From: Vicugna vicugna
Taxonomy: Eukaryota
DNA: 64,000 nt
Reading direction: 5' to 3'
Assembly: GCA_013265495.1 (NCBI GenBank)
Contig: MU057377.1
Location: 372,001-436,000 of the forward strand
A model generated the notes under the pieces. The model was not told the origin of the DNA. It did not search any database and was given only the letters and a program-made list of their open reading frames with translations. Below, piece by piece: positions 3,201 to 60,484 of this stretch (its first letter is position 1; each line of letters begins with the position of its first letter). The position numbers were made by a program, and so were the translations under genes.

Positions 3201-4448
3201 AAAACTGTCCGCGCCTACGGTCTGTGGGCCTGAAGCCCGACATTTCTTTCCTGAGCGTTTGCGGCATCCTTCATCTGTCCCTGGTGGGCAAGGGAGGCCC
3301 GATGGTCACACGTTCTTTCCTGTTGCTTTACTGCATTTTTCCTTGTAATTCCTAACATTTACACATTTAATCTTTCACAAAAGAACTGCCAATCACTTGA
3401 CTATGTATTTCTTTAAATCTACACAGGGAAACTAGTTTTAAGTTTCGCCACCCTGGGGGAAAAGAAGAGAGTGAAGAGAAAGCCTGTATTTGGGTCAGTG
3501 GTCTAAAGGAAAGGTGTTGAAGAAAAGATACTGAAGTAGAGCGATACACAGTGACTTACACAGGCTTCTACCTGGCTTAACGTCAGCTCTGTGGGCATCG
3601 CTAGTGTAAAGTAAGGTTGGACATGTTTATTTGATGAACCTGGAAAACTAAAGCGGGAAGACTGGAATTTCTTTTATTGGCTGTGTGGCTCGTCCAAGGA
3701 CAGCAAGCTCTGCTGTCAGTCAGGATAAACGGATCAGGGGACATCGGCGGGATTACTTGCGTCACTCAGGCTCTTAACTGGGTGCTTCGGCCGACAGTGA
3801 ATTGCCTATTTATGTCCATGTATTTATACTGTGAGGTGGATTACTTGACGCTGACTGTTGTTTTGTTTATGAAGTCAGTTCACTTAATTAACTGAAAATG
3901 ATCACTTCCTTTTATTTTTCAAAAATTCTTTTAGTTGAATATCTGATTCCACGATACAGTTGTATTTCAAAAATAATCACGATGGGGAAAATTCTTATTA
4001 TCTGATGCAGCCTGCACTTACATCAGAATAAATTACATTAATGGAGAAGAAGGCCATAAATTTTAAGTTTATATAAATATCATTGGCTATTAAAATGACC
4101 TTTGTCTTATTCCCACCTTATTCAAAGTCATACATAATGAAACATCCAAGAGAAAATTATTTCTACAAAAACATATATGCAAAAAAGTAAGTTTCATCTT
4201 TCTCTGTTTTAACTGACCTAGGTGTTTAATTAACAGAAATTTTAAAATATTAAAATATAAAGACCAAGGGCTCAATGCATAAGTCCTTTCCTCATTACAT
4301 TGAGTAACATTCTCTTACTTAAAAGTTCTAATTTTCAGCTGGCAGTAATGCCTAATACAGCATTAACAGCAGTTGCTAAGTGAACATCTTAAAAACTCTA
4401 ACAACGTACTACTCAGCTTCTACAAGTGATAAGAAAAGAGCACGTTAC

Positions 4449-4500
4449 CTATGAGCATCGCCATTAAAATGTGAAGACCTTGTGTCCCGGCACCAAACAT
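4449..4500 (-). CDS. CRB1: CRB1-B alternative first coding exon (exon 5c), coding part; hydrophobic leader
   Basis: Minus strand reads ATG TTT GGT GCC GGG ACA CAA GGT CTT CAC ATT TTA ATG GCG ATG CTC ATA G|gtaacg = MFGAGTQGLHILMAMLI-G. This closely matches the recalled human CRB1-B N-terminus MFGARTHGFHILMAMLIG. The phase-1 donor has the same phase as the exon 5 donor, so it can join exon 6. Confidence 0.92.
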
Positions 4501-4770
4501 CTTTCTGCAGAAAAAGAGGTATCCATCCAGACACCTCTCAGGCCGACAGGACCAGTTTCTGATGCTTTTCTACCATTTCCAAGAGTGTGGGCTTGTCCTT
4601 CGGTGTCACCTTCTTCCTTCAGGCAGAGAGTGTGAGGACTTAGCTCGGTTCACACCCCCGCCCGGACCAGCCAGGCTTAGGGTAAGGCCGTGTGTGCCCT
4701 CGCCAAGCAGCCTTGTTTATTCTTAGCCCCTGCGTGACACCCGGGGCCTCGCTTTTATAAGTCACAGCAG
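4501..4770 (-). promoter_or_regulatory. Candidate CRB1-B core promoter and 5'UTR
   Basis: TATAAAAG on the minus strand at 4759-4752 implies a TSS near 4730. CTAAGCC (CRX/OTX-type) lies at 4680-4674 and a GC box (ccccgccc) near 4656-4663. The region sits directly upstream of the exon 5c ATG. The TSS is inferred, not observed. Confidence 0.6.
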
Positions 4771-5748
4771 TGAACGCTAGGTCGGTCGCACGCTGAACAT
4801 GGATGCTTTCATCACAGGGAAATGAGTTTGGGGGACCCTGCATGCAGATGGGCACTTTGGGTAACTTCTATTACTTGATCTTATTTTTTCTTCGTAACAT
4901 TGGAAATGCCGGGGTTTGGGGGATTTTTTTGGTTTTGTAACTTTTTTTCTGCTTTGCTTTTGAATGGTAGCTGAGAAATTCGTGGCAGCTTCAAATCTCT
5001 TCACTTATGCGTGGAATTGCGAAGGAGAAAGTAAAGAAAACAGCAGGGGTTTCAGTAGACTTAACGGATTGTGGCGAGAGTTATTTGTGTGATGCGTCCA
5101 GGCTTATATCCTACTCTCTGTGAAGGAATAACTAGATTTCTCCAAGATACAACGGTGTTTGACTGTGTACGGCAGGTGATGTGAAGAGGTGAGGCGTTGG
5201 GGACATACTTAAAGGACTTGGTGCTTTTTTTTCTTTTTTAAACATTTTCTGAGGGCGGAGCTGAGGATGTGCAGAAATTTCATCCAGGCAACACGGGCTG
5301 AGTGGTCCCTGAGTCCCGCAGGGCTGCCACGGGGCCTGAAATTCTTACCATTAGAGCAGTTTCTCTAGGTTGAGCCGTGTCTCTCGGACGCCTTGGAAAA
5401 GAGGCAAGTATCACCTGAGAGGTGGTGAGTACGTGACGAGGCAGGTGTCGGTGCCCGTCCAGGGACCAGCACACGCTCTTAGAACCCCGGCACGGAACCG
5501 AGTCAGGTCAGCGGCGCTGGAGCCAGGTGATGGGGCAGCAGGAAGGACGCAGGGCAGGAGACGCTGCACTTGTGCGCTCCTTCACTCGTTGATTGCTCTT
5601 CCTTTTAGCTGTGCTGGATGAATGTGCCTCACTCATTTATCAGTCACTCATCCTTTTAACAGCATTCATAGCACGGGGCATGGCTGCTTCCTCAGCATCC
5701 ACTCCTTTGATCTATTTTATTTTCACACGATTTTAAAAGTTTTGCTTC

Positions 5749-24583: not shown

Positions 24584-26160
24584 CACTCTTGAGAGAGAAG
24601 GACGGAGCTGGAGGTCGCATGCTCCCTGACTTCAGACCACACTACAAAGCTACAGTCATCAAAAGAGTATGAGATTGGCACAAAAACATACACATACGTC
24701 AAGGGAACAGAATAGAGGGCCCAGAAATAAACCCGGGCACCTACAGGTAATTAGCCCAAAGGAGGCAAGAGTATGCAATGGAGAAAAGACAGCCTTTTCC
24801 ATAAATGGAGCTGGGAAAAGTGGACAGCCACATGCGAAAGACTGAAACTGGGCCACTTTCTCACACCATCTACAGAAATAAACTCAAAATGGTTTAAAGA
24901 CTTAAATGTAAGACCTGAAGCCATAAAACTTCAAGGGAAAAACACAGGTAGTTAGCTCTCTGACAATGATCTTAGCAATATTTTTTTGGATATGACTCCT
25001 CAGGCAAAGGCTACAAAAGCAGAAATAAACAAATGAGACTCCATCAAACTAAAAAACTTTTGCACAGTGAAGGAAACCATCAACAAAATGAAAAGGCAAC
25101 TTCCCTAGCAGAAGAAGATATTTATAAATAATATATATGATAAGGGGCTAACACCCAAAATATACAAAGAACATCCCCAAACAGGCCAATTAAAAATGGG
25201 CAGAGGACCTGAATAGACATTTTTCTAAAGAGATACAGATGCCAACAAGCACATGAAGAGATGTCCAACATCACTAATCATCAGGGAAATGCAAGTCAAA
25301 GGCTCACACCTGTCAGACTGGCTGTCATCAAAAAGACAACGGCTAACAGTGCCAGTGAGGCTGTGAAGAAAAGGGAACCCTCCTATACTGTTGGTGGGAA
25401 TGTAAATTGGTGCAGCCACTGTGGAAAACAGTATGGAAGTTCCTTAAAAAATTAAAAATAGAACTTCCATATGATCCAGCAATTCTAATTCTGGGTATTT
25501 AGCCAAAACAAACAAACAAAAAGACCCTGCACCAAAAACACTAATTCAAAAGGATACATGCACCCCAGTGTTCACAGCAGCACTATTTACAGTAGCCAAA
25601 ATATGGAAGCAACCTAAGTGTCCATCACTGACGAATGGATAAAGAAGATGTAGTAAGTACATCTACACAAAGAAATATTATTCAGCCATAAAAAAAATGA
25701 AACCCTGCCACGTGTTACAACATGGATGGATCCAGAGGGCATTATGCTAAGAGAAATAAGTCAAACGGAGAAAGACAAATTACTGCCTGATCCCACTTAT
25801 GCGTGGATTCTAAAAAACAGAACAAACCAAAAACAAAATGAAAACACTCACAGATACAGAGAACACATGGATGGCTGTCAGAAGGGAGGGGGCGTGGAAA
25901 TGGGGGAAACAGGTGAAGAGGATTAAGAGATACAAATCTCCAGTCACACAGTCAGCCAGCTATGGGGGTGTAATATACAGCATCAGGACTATGGTCAGTA
26001 ATACTGTAATAAGTTTTCATGGGGACAGATAGTTCTTAGACGTATTGTAGTGATGATTTCCGTAACAGATGCAAATGTCAAACATGATACAGTGCACCTG
26101 AAAATAACATAACATTGTACGTCAACTATACTTCAATAGAAAATGGTATAATTTTAAAAA
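24584..26160 (+). mobile_element. 5'-truncated L1 (end of ORF2 plus 3'UTR)
   Basis: Broken ORF2 peptides ([31 protein letters not shown]...[43 protein letters not shown]); 3' end tcaactatacttcaata. Confidence 0.92.
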
Positions 26161-34099: not shown

Positions 34100-36690
34100 A
34101 GGGTGACTGCCCGCAAAAATGAAAAAAATTCAAACAAGACTCAGAGTTTTCTAACATAATATCCAAAATGTCCCAGATATAGTTGAAAATCACCCATCAT
34201 ACCAAGAATCAGGAAAACCAAAACTCAAGTGAGAAAAGAAAATGAACTGACATCATCAACTCAGTCTGAGCTGAATCAGATGTTGGAATTATCTGATGAG
34301 GATTTAAAGCGAACATTATGAAGAATAAATAAGCAATTACAAATTCTCTTGAGATAAAAGGAAAACTAGAAAATATCAGCAAGGAATTAGATATAAAAAA
34401 TTGAAATTATAAAACTGGAAAATGAAATAGGAGAAATATAACCAATTCCCTGAATGGACTCAGTAGTGGAGAGGAAATGAAAGAGAATAAAGTTAATGAA
34501 TTTGGGGTCAGATCAACAGAATTTACCCATTCTAAACAAAATAGAGGGAAAAAAATGAACAGAGACTCAGGAACCTGTGGGAAAATAGCAAAATACCCAC
34601 AGATTACATTTTTGGAGTTGTAGATGCAGGAAAAGATAGTGAGGCTGAAAGAGACATAAGTACACAGATGTGAAAAGCTGAATGAATTCCAAATAGGACA
34701 AGCCCAAATAAACTGACACCAAGACACAGCATTAATAAAATTCTGAAAACTAAAGACAAAGTTGAAGGTATCATCACTACATTTTTTTTTCTCTGCAAGA
34801 AGCCAGAGAAAGGATTCATTCATTACCTATAGAGAAATACAAATTTCAAAGACAGCAGATTTCTCATTTGAGACCATGGAGTGAAGAAGGAAGTAATGTA
34901 GAATTTTTCAAGTGCTGAAAAAAAAAAAAAAAGGACTGTCAACCATGAATTTTATATTCAGCAAACTAACTTTCAGGAACAAATGGGCAATTAAGTCTTT
35001 CTCAGATTAAAAAAAAAGTAGAAGAATTGACACTAGCATCCTACTCTTAAAGAAATTGTAAAGGAAGTTCTTTACACAGAAAGGAAATGGTAAAATAAGA
35101 ACTGAGGCAAAAGGAAGGAAGAAAGAACAATGGAGAGGATGCAGAGGACAGGTAAATGAAACAGATCACCTTTCTCTTCATGAGTTTTCTAAATCATATG
35201 TAGTGATTAAAGAAAGAATTACAATACCATCAGATCCCTAAGACAATAATAGTTCAAAATGCAAAAAAAAAGGAAACTAAATGGAAATGGAGTTATTCCA
35301 CTTCACTTAAAATGGTAAACTGTTAATACCAACAGGCTGTGATGAGTCATGTGTTTATATTATAATACCCAGAACAACCACTAGGAAAACTGCACAATAC
35401 AGTATATCCAAAAATACTATAAAATCAAGATAAAATCCTTAAAAAAATGGACAAGTAAACCCACAGGAAGGCAAGAAAAGAGAAACAAAGAAAACAAACA
35501 AAAAATTAAATGACACAGTTCAGCCCTAAAATATCAGCCCTAACATATCACTTAAAGGCAAATGGTTGAAATACATCAATTAAAAGGCAGAGATTAACAG
35601 AATGGTAAAAAATCAAAGCATGGCTCAATAATATGCTTTTTACATTGCCATTTACAAGAAACTCACTTCAAATTCAATGACAAGTGGGTTGATAGCAGAA
35701 GAATGGACAAAGGCATACCATACAAACATTAATTTTGTAAAAGGGAGCAGCATGATCATCTATGTGGGAAATCTGAAAGAACTCACAAAAAAATCTCCTG
35801 GAAATAATAAAGGATTATAACAAGGTTGCAGAGTACAAGGTTAATACACAAAAATCAATTGCTTTCCTACCTAACGGCAACGACCAAGTGGAATTTGAAA
35901 TTAACAACATGATACCATTTACATTGGCACCCCAAAAATGAAATACTTAGATATAAATCTAACAAAATATGTATAAGATCTATATGAGGAAAACTACAAA
36001 ACTCTGATGAAAGATACCAAAGAACTAAATAAATGGAGAGCTATCCCATGTTCATGGATAGGAAGACTCAATATTGCCAAGATGTTAGTTTTCCCCAAAT
36101 TTGTTTATAGAGTCAATGAAATTCCAACCCAAATCCCAGCAGGTTGTTATATAGACATCAACAAGCTGATCCTAATGTTTACATGGAGAGGCAACAGACC
36201 CAGAATAGCCACCAAAATACTGAAGGAGAAGAACACCGTTGGAGGATGGACACTACCCAACTTCAAGATTTCAAGACAGCATGGTATAGACAAAAGGACA
36301 GACAAATAGGGAAACAGAACAGAATAGAGAGCCCAGAAATAGACTCTTGTAAATACAGTCAACTGGTCATTGACAAAGAAGTAAAGGCAATATAATGGAT
36401 CAAAGGTGTTCTTTTCAATAAATGGTGGTGGAACAACTGGATAGTCATAAGCAGGAAAATGAATCTAGACACAGACCTTACCCCTTCACAAAGATTAACT
36501 GGATCACAGACCTAAATATAAAATGCAAAACTACAAAACGCCTAGAAGATCACATGGGAGAAAACCTCAGTAAACTTGGATGAGTTGACTTTTTAGATGC
36601 AGCACTGAAGGCATGACCCATGACTGCATAAAAATTAAACACTTCTTCTTTGCCAAAGGAAACATCGAAAGAATGAGAAGGCAACATGGA
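34100..36690 (+). mobile_element. Old, internally deleted L1 (ORF1 remnant and ORF2 fragments)
   Basis: A-rich ORF1-like region; ORF2 peptide MKDTKELNKWRAIPCSWIGRLNIAKMLVFPKFVYRVNEIP at 36007-36309, with frameshifts. Confidence 0.9.
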
Positions 36691-37773: not shown

Positions 37774-37940
37774 GAGAGGGGACAGAGTATGTAGTTCAGT
37801 GGTAGAGCACATGCTTAACATGCACAAGGTCCTGGGTTCGATCCCCAGCACCTCGTTAAAGATAAATAAACAAATAAACCTAATTACTTCCCCCCCAAAA
37901 TAAAAAATTAAAAAAAATTTTTTTAAATCTTTTAAAAAAT
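37774..37940 (+). mobile_element. tRNA-Ala-derived SINE (camelid Vic-1-like)
   Basis: A box (tagttcagtggtagag), B box (gggttcgatccc), tail with acctaattacttcccc and an A-rich end. 11-bp TSD agaaagggaag at 37763-37773 and 37941-37951. Confidence 0.88.
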
Positions 37941-38639: not shown

Positions 38640-39110
38640 TTCTGCGCGCACAGCCCCTCCTGCTGCGGCCCCGTTAGGGTGAAGGCAGCATCTGCCACGG
38701 ACGCTAGAAGCGCAAGGCACCTCCCCGGCCCGGGCCGCGGCCTCACCTGTGAGTCCCGGCGGACAGACGCAGGCGTAGCCCGAGGCCTGGGCGCGGCTGG
38801 AGGGAGAAGGCCGCCGGGCGCCGCGCCCGCGCGCGGTCTCCGAGGACAGCGCCACGCACTGCCCGCCCGACTGGCAGGGGTGGCTGCTGCATCCGTCCAC
38901 GTCGGTCTCACACTGGGCACCCGTGTATCCTGCGGGGACAGGTGCGGAGAAGCTTCTCAGCCACTGAGCGCGTGCCGGGAGGAGGCCGGCCACCGCGCTG
39001 GCTCCGACCAACAGCACGATGAGCGCCGCTCGAGGAGCTGGGGAGGGCGGTCTGGTAAGGGAGGCGCCCATGAACTTCAGAAACAGTAGACCGGGAGTCA
39101 CCGGTGTCAT
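38640..39110. other. CpG-rich patch centred on exon 5
   Basis: High CpG density over the exon and about 100-180 bp of each flank, within an AT-rich intron. Confidence 0.75.
38747..38929 (-). CDS. CRB1: CRB1 exon 5 (183 bp), atypical EGF repeat with a long insert loop
   Basis: Acceptor ctgtccccgcag|GATAC and donor ACAG|gtgagg. Translates to GYTGAQCETDVDGCSSHPCQSGGQCVALSSETARGRGARRPSPSSRAQASGYACVCPPGLTG. Cys spacing and the LSSE...ASGY anchors match CRB1. Confidence 0.96.
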
Positions 39111-44775: not shown

Positions 44776-44915
44776 CAGGCCAGCAGTGACAAATGTAACC
44801 GTCAGCACCGTCCTCACATGTCGCATTATTGTGACAGGGCTTTGACCAACACGGAGGCACCGGGGTCTCACAATGCGTCCCTGTGAATCCACTTCCTGTG
44901 CAGTTACAGCTGTAG
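44776..44915 (-). CDS. CRB1: CRB1 exon 4 (140 bp), EGF repeats
   Basis: Acceptor ttgactctccag|CTAC and donor CCTG|gtaagt. Translates to [47 protein letters not shown]. The ORF track does not show this frame. Confidence 0.96.
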
Positions 44916-47498: not shown

Positions 47499-47822
<324 letters not shown>

Positions 47823-59259: not shown

Positions 59260-60360
59260 TGCGCCGCGGACTCGGGACAATGAGGCGGGCGCGGGGTGCT
59301 GAGCGCGAGAACAAGGCGCAGCAGGTGCCCTTGCGATGCATCCGCCCTTGTTGCCCCGTCACTAAATCAACATCCACAGAAACTTCGGGAAGAGACGGGA
59401 GGGACTATTATTTGCTATTTCCAGGAGATTCTGCAAGAGTGACGTCTGCATTGGTGACGTCTTGACTGCTCCCATCCCCTGTGCCCCGTCAGCCTCGCTA
59501 CCCTCGGCGTGTTCACTTCAGCACTGGTCACCCACCTCCGCCGTCCACCCCGTGGTCCCCTCCCCAGGCCGCCCCGGCGGGAGCGGGCACCGCAGCCAGG
59601 ACGGCGGGAGTCCGCTCCGGCGGGGAACCTGCAGGAGCCGCCGGAGAGCGAGGTCCCGCGGGGCCCGCTGCTTCCAGGCGGCGTCTGCGCGTCCGGGAAC
59701 AGGCGAAACCGCGGCGGCGCAGCGCGCGACCGCGACGCCCGGGGCCCCCTTGCAGCTCCGCGCGCTTTCCGCCCACAGATCAGCCCCTGTCGAGGCCACG
59801 TCCACAAGCGAGTGGACGGGACATCAAAGGCCAGGTCTGCTCCTGTCACGTGGACGAGAAGGCTACTTACGCCACCTGGGATTCAAGCGGGGGCACACTT
59901 ACCCGAGTAAGGGCGGGGACACAGGCAGGCGTATCTCCCGATCTCATTGAGGCACGTGGCCCCGTTCCCGCAGGGATGTGACGCACACTCGTCCACCTCC
60001 ACGTCGCAGTGGCGGCCCTGGTAGCCCGGGACGCAGAAGCAGGCGTAGCCGTTGGCCCCGTCCCGGCACACGGCGCCGTTGCGGCAGGGGCTGGACGCGC
60101 ACTCGTCGCGGTCCAGCTCGCAGAAGCTTCCGGCAAACCCGGGAGGGCAGACGCAGGCGGGCTGCGCGGGGCCGAGGCGGCAGACGCCTCCGTGCTGGCA
60201 GGGGCCCGCGCCGCAGGCTTCGTCGGCCGTGTCGCAGGCGGCGCCGCTGGATCCGGGAGGACATCGGCACAGAAAGCCCCGCTCCCCGGGGGCGCTCACG
60301 CACGTGGCGTTGCCGGGGCAGGGGCTGGAGACGCAGGGGTCTGGCTCCTCGTCGCAGCCT
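59260..60360. other. CpG island over the 3' part of exon 2 and the start of intron 2
   Basis: Very high GC and CpG density, which also produces many overlapping spurious ORFs. Confidence 0.8.
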
Positions 60361-60484
60361 TTGCCCAGATGAAGGGCTGTGTCTGCGCAAGGGCAACTGT
60401 GGTCTTCTGACGCATCCTTGCAGGTGGAATTGTTCTGGCAGGAATGTGAGAGGCACTCGGTGTCGTTTTCATTGCAAAAGGAAT
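59903..60484 (-). CDS. CRB1: CRB1 exon 2 (582 bp), N-terminal EGF-like repeats
   Basis: Acceptor ttttatttccttgcag|ATTCC at 60485/60484 and donor TCGG|gtaagt at 59903/59902. Translates to [23 protein letters not shown]...[69 protein letters not shown], collinear with recalled human CRB1 ([23 protein letters not shown]...[22 protein letters not shown]). Phase 1 at both ends. Confidence 0.97.

Follow-up and report, generated by a model that had tools for sequence, protein, structure and literature searches.

CRB1, a blindness gene, has an alternative start used specifically in the retina. The resulting isoform CRB1-B is described as the main retinal isoform of CRB1 in mouse and human, produced by both rods and cones, and mouse Crb1-B has its own 5' and 3' exons, 5c and 11b (Ray et al. 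2020, PMC7335077). The question raised by this camelid locus is whether the first of these exons, and the promoter that would feed it, persist in a form that could still work. In mouse, ATAC-seq and in situ staining show the 5c promoter to be accessible and in use in rods and cones, deletion of the first exon and promoter leads to loss of CRB1-B protein, and the signal peptide and transmembrane segments of the protein are predicted; Crb1-B was also quantified in cow, rat and zebrafish (PMC7335077). The dominant mouse isoform, PB.338.150, comprised 36,872 reads, or 72% of Crb1 (PMC7335077, Supplementary Data 1). One later paper gives "7 exons from 5c to 11" (PMC8657784) and, like Ray et al. 2020, calls the exon 5c, while a 2026 preprint (10.64898/2026.08.05.743134) calls the same exon 5a; two others restate the isoform, in the portions that concern it, with no promoter detail (PMC12692272, PMC11450717). 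A literature search on CRB1 in alpaca and camel found no report of camelid CRB1-B. Published work already covers the isoform, the cells that make it and its conservation across vertebrates, and what is new here is only the species and a gap in annotation.

The window is the whole stretch of vicuña DNA that was analyzed, 64,000 nucleotides in length. The segment of interest lies in CRB1 intron 5 on the minus strand, where a preliminary description of this DNA had placed it, with exons 2–5 mapped upstream on the same strand:

59903..60484, minus strand: CRB1 exon 2, 582 nt; 193/193 residues match alpaca CRB1 X1 and 183/193 match full-length Camelus models
47500..47695, minus strand: CRB1 exon 3, 196 nt; 63/64 match the alpaca model
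44776..44915, minus strand: CRB1 exon 4, 140 nt
38747..38929, minus strand: CRB1 exon 5, 183 nt; 60/60 match the alpaca model

The corresponding mouse exons in the published transcript rows are 579, 196, 140 and 183 nt long. Three of these four window exons were scanned in Pfam, and all three matched EGF. The full identity of exon 2 to alpaca CRB1 points to alpaca or a close relative as the source. The alpaca CRB1 protein aligns to the window as far as residue 391 only. Exon 5c lies 34.0 kb downstream of exon 5, compared with 58.7 kb in the mouse transcript coordinates. Exon 6 is absent from the 4,448 nt of window that remain past the 5c donor and is expected beyond the window edge, since the mouse intron between 5c and exon 6 measures 6,475 nt (Ray et al. 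2020, PMC7335077).

Two features of the upstream exons deserve mention in their own right. Exon 3 encodes R at a residue where the alpaca reference model has Q, which makes the window a different allele or a sister species. Exon 5 (38929-38747, minus strand) has a very high GC content and encodes a central stretch rich in Arg and Ala, unlike the mouse residues available for that position; because all 60 residues are identical to the alpaca model, this is a lineage trait.

The region around exon 5c is not an assembly artefact, because sampled words of positions 4000-5200 recur in 14 DNA or unlabelled sequencing runs from 6 studies (0.93-0.97 of words present); 13 of these runs remain when the one flagged as a possible source is set aside. 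Six RNA or guessed-RNA runs contained 0.10-0.25 of the same words, which speaks neither for nor against transcription, and none of the 24 listed runs was labelled retina.

As the preliminary description had reported, the segment is a 52-nt minus-strand coding stretch that ends in a phase-1 GT donor:

4449..4500, minus strand: coding part of the CRB1-B first exon (5c), 17 codons plus 1 nt, with a predicted signal peptide; 14/17 residues match both pig and macaque
4442..4448, minus strand: 5' splice donor GTAACG, phase 1 (TAG|GTAACG, GT at 4448-4447)

The ATG at 4500 opens 52 nt that run to 4449 and encode MFGAGTQGLHILMAMLI followed by one G. The donor would be compatible with exon 6, because it is in phase 1, as is the exon 5 donor. 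This pattern by itself is no proof of an exon, since the 38.7 kb of intron 5 within the window contain 3 instances of an ATG that is followed by 10-30 open codons and then by a phase-1 AG|GTAA. Homology is far more specific. Among 127,894 six-frame positions in the window, the pig 17-residue peptide scored 63 at 4500 (next-best 22) and the macaque peptide 68 (next-best 30), and tblastn with the macaque N-terminus gave E=2.8e-16 over 4563-4447. In the pig, macaque and (from the published rows) mouse sequences, the peptide passes from ..LIG directly into exon 6. The peptide was found in 2 of the 400 proteins compared (CRB1 for the most part, plus some Notch and other EGF proteins), namely those of pig and macaque. 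When the 41-residue frame that is open across exon 5c was searched against proteins, no candidate emerged, a weak negative because the search covers cluster representatives only and the pig and macaque proteins are cluster members.

Each of the three species compared (mouse, pig and macaque) supports the assignment as exon 5c, which the preliminary description had proposed under the name used by Ray et al. The mouse DNA was read against the window by eye rather than by program, from rows of the Ray et al. supplement that were located with a DNA 8-mer; words of the window peptide gave no match there, and the table covers mouse only. Read this way, mouse 5c (isoform PB.338.150, PMC7335077) matches the window at 13/17 residues and 44/52 bases. 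In both species the exon lies late in intron 5, carries 52 coding nt and a phase-1 donor, and exits at the same base, and the window stretch 4760-4449 (312 nt) is close in length to the longest mouse 5c listed (310 nt, 139255551-139255860). A pig protein of the CRB1-B type, UniRef100_A0A8W4FJ88 (998 aa), already in the database, has an N-terminal 17-residue stretch identical to the window peptide at 14/17 positions; this stretch stands at its very start and is joined straight to exon 6, and a B-type tail stands at its end. Macaque CRB1 isoform X10 (XP_073887785.1, 1055 aa) also matches at 14/17, with the peptide preceded by a 22-residue extension that likewise aligns to the window (30/40 overall), and ends in an A-type tail. 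The 22 codons before the window ATG (4566-4501, minus strand) are open, and 15/22 are identical to the macaque extension. We rejected a coding extension as in macaque: where macaque has its ATG the window has AGC, and in the mouse sequence, as read by eye, the frame does not stay open.

The predicted signal peptide differs among these species at residue 5, which is G in the window, R in both pig and macaque (including the pig B-type protein), and K in the mouse rows. In the window peptide no basic residue, K or R, precedes the hydrophobic core, while the core itself (2.53, versus 2.60 in pig and 2.42 in macaque) shows hydropathy like that of the orthologs. Judged by its sequence, the segment at 4500-4449 is the camelid ortholog of CRB1 exon 5c, with ATG, frame and donor intact.

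Existing camelid gene models likely lack this exon altogether, in line with what the preliminary description had suspected of automated annotation. None of the 15 listed camelid cluster members (of 21) uses exon 5c or begins with its peptide, and the best reached 5-6/17. Three camel models carry a B-type tail and begin with other pieces of intron 5 joined to exon 6, which map to the window as follows:

14962-14852 and 3284-3201, minus strand: intron-5 first-exon pieces of C. ferus models
6066-6043, minus strand: intron-5 first-exon piece of a C. dromedarius model

The use of these pieces in place of 5c is probably a prediction error. The B-type tails of the three models suggest that exon 11b is intact in Camelus; no such tail occurs in the 6 listed alpaca models. 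In a regular-expression scan, 18 of the 400 proteins had the B tail, and pig was the only one to have both it and the 5c peptide.

Our data thus establish the position and orthology of 5c in this camelid and the intactness of its ATG, frame and donor. Its expression and splicing, the cells that use it and the role of its signal peptide are inferred by analogy with mouse, and we put the probability that 5c works in this camelid as it does in mouse at roughly 0.93. Under this model, an internal promoter in CRB1 intron 5 would be active in rods and cones, and transcripts would start in or slightly upstream of 4660-4760. Exon 5c would provide the 5' UTR and an 18-residue signal peptide and would splice in phase 1 to exon 6; together with an extended exon 11b, this would yield a CRB1-B surface protein of roughly 1,000 residues, without the EGF repeats of exons 2-5 and without the Crumbs polarity tail. 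The preliminary description had further held the two-promoter architecture to be intact in this lineage. The 5c side of that statement holds at the level of sequence, while exon 1 with its promoter, exon 6 and exon 11b lie outside the window.

What would drive transcription of exon 5c is less settled, and the relevant elements lie in the 5' UTR and just beyond it:

4501..4760, minus strand: 5' UTR and start-site region, with blocks conserved in mouse by eye
4752..4759, minus strand: TATAAAAG, a TATA consensus 259 nt upstream of the ATG, of uncertain function
4718..4727, minus strand: GCTAAGAATA, with a TAAG core, a candidate upstream element identical in mouse by eye; its function is inferred only
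4674..4686, minus strand: CTTA-N3-TAAGCC, a CRX-type 3'G variant site

Blocks kept in mouse, read by eye, are 4760-4732 (21/29), 4727-4718 (10/10), 4711-4703 (9/9) and 4595-4576 (19/20), a pattern that points to a window 5' UTR orthologous to that of mouse 5c. The preliminary description had correctly noted TATAAAAG about 250 bp upstream, with CTAAGCC (4680-4674) in between, and had treated the former as a promoter element with a start near 4730. Transcription starts about 30 nt downstream of a TATA box, and a box at 4759 would place the start near 4730. A box that drives a focused promoter should lie at this distance from the start and be conserved in orthologs, and the available mouse sequence shows otherwise. 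At the TATA position mouse has TACAGAAG instead of TATAAAAG, and TACAGAAG forms bases 2-9 of the longest mouse transcript listed. Eight mouse B-type 5' ends, mapped by eye, fall at about 4760, 4695, 4681, 4677, 4676, 4674, 4668 and 4668; seven of the eight thus lie at about 4668-4695 and none near 4730, though these ends are representatives of collapsed clusters rather than CAGE peaks, with genomic coordinates for 7/8. Neither the TATA box as a promoter element nor a start near 4730 is borne out by this comparison.

The same ends draw attention to the CRX-type site. Both CTTA and TAAGCC are kept in the mouse sequence, and the site sits where most of the listed mouse 5' ends fall. The arrangement CTTA-N3-TAAG occurs only here in the window, and YTAAKCC sites overall show no enrichment (24 seen versus 35 expected). 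CTAAGCC is a known 3'G CRX site of medium affinity (PMC5335693, PMC10817189), while the published CRX dimer, as described there, is TAAG-N3-CTTA and the window has the reverse order. The conserved TAAGCC has the form of a K50 homeodomain site and is a candidate for CRX-type regulation. GCTAAGAATA, which the preliminary description did not list, lies 40-50 nt upstream of TAAGCC. The promoter may also reach past 4770, because the mouse deletion that abolishes CRB1-B extends 628 nt further upstream than the longest 5' end (PMC7335077). We consider a CRX-type promoter with dispersed starts somewhat more probable than a TATA-driven one that uses the box at 4759.

A focused TATA promoter on the same exon is nevertheless a serious contender, if the less favoured one. 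Here TATAAAAG at 4759-4752 would set the start near 4730, and either mouse has lost the TATA box or camelids have gained it. The box is a perfect consensus within a block that can be aligned to mouse (21/29 by eye), the exact 8-mer occurs just 3 times on the minus strand of the window, and GC and CpG increase directly downstream; moreover, camelids may differ from a mouse whose 5' ends represent clusters and not CAGE peaks. Against this, mouse has TACAGAAG at the site and its longest listed transcript starts on it, no mapped mouse end lies near 4730 whereas 7 lie at about 4668-4695, and the looser TATAWAWR consensus occurs 36 times on the same strand (0.17 per 300 bases).

Further candidate signals lie closer to the ATG:

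4538..4576, minus strand: upstream ORF of 12 codons, out of frame, whose ATG at 4576 has a strong context and, by eye, no mouse counterpart
4464..4526, minus strand: upstream ORF of 20 codons, out of frame, overlapping the main ATG; the mouse ATG lies in the same GGATGG word by eye
4505..4521, minus strand: pyrimidine tract and CAG resembling a splice acceptor, ending 4 nt short of the ATG; splicing here would create a 56-nt internal exon at 4504-4449

The strong-context upstream ATG at 4576 could lower translation. Both this ATG and the acceptor-like CAG at 4505 are specific to the window in the comparison with mouse. The acceptor-like site raises the idea that 4504-4449 doubles as an internal exon. 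If joined to exon 5, it would carry a stop codon into CRB1-A and silence that isoform; if joined instead to a non-coding exon lying upstream, it would provide CRB1-B with a second promoter. The site is one of 20 acceptor-like sites in 38,746 nt and one of the 3 that have an AG|GTRA donor no more than 200 nt away, and the frame that would follow from exon 5 does reach a stop inside these 56 nt. The criterion for acceptors, however, is our own and loose, the AG is absent at this place in the mouse sequence as read by eye, and 5c always comes first in the 7 mouse B-type transcripts with coordinates. We regard the double role as unlikely. A broader version, in which camelid 5c has gained control that mouse lacks through the combination of this acceptor, a true TATA and a strong upstream ORF, is distinctly unlikely; were it true, inclusion of the same 56 nt, with their stop, would switch off CRB1-A in photoreceptors, or the 56 nt would be joined to an upstream exon, and one small exon would serve both as the start of isoform B and as an off switch for isoform A.

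It is very unlikely that exon 5c is a silent relic, with the orthologous sequence persisting in camelids that no longer make CRB1-B in quantity. Such a reading would account for the lost basic residue at position 5, the added upstream ATG, the absence of the exon from all 15 listed camelid models and the lack of a retina run among the listed runs with the sequence. Yet the start codon, reading frame, donor and hydrophobic core show no damage, the peptide agrees with pig at 14/17 residues, and Camelus models retain an intact B tail; absence from models is also usual for this exon, with the peptide present in only 2 of the 400 proteins compared. The chance that the segment is an accidental ATG-to-GT pattern is negligible, and the idea is refuted by homology of the 5c peptide: two further such patterns exist in the same intron, but scores of 63 and 68 stand against backgrounds of 22 and 30, E is 2.8e-16, and the donor and exon length (312 versus 310 nt) are as in the mouse rows.

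With exon 5c read as an intact first exon of CRB1-B, the value of these data is modest. They correct camelid annotation and add an artiodactyl sequence for locating the conserved elements of a promoter that matters for gene therapy of CRB1 and for CRB1 disease that lacks an explanation. For that purpose, the camelid-mouse comparison favours TAAGCC and GCTAAGAATA over TATA as the conserved elements.

Repeat-like features elsewhere in the window are minor. None of the 10 tandem repeats listed for the window lies near exon 5c. The sole Rfam match in the window is a weak tRNA match at 37785-37855 on the plus strand (37.1 bits), far from exon 5c, which we take to be probably the head of a tRNA-derived SINE, and two open reading frame pieces on the plus strand (25213-25926 and 35977-36395) presumably represent LINE-1 ORF2 remnants, which they resemble.
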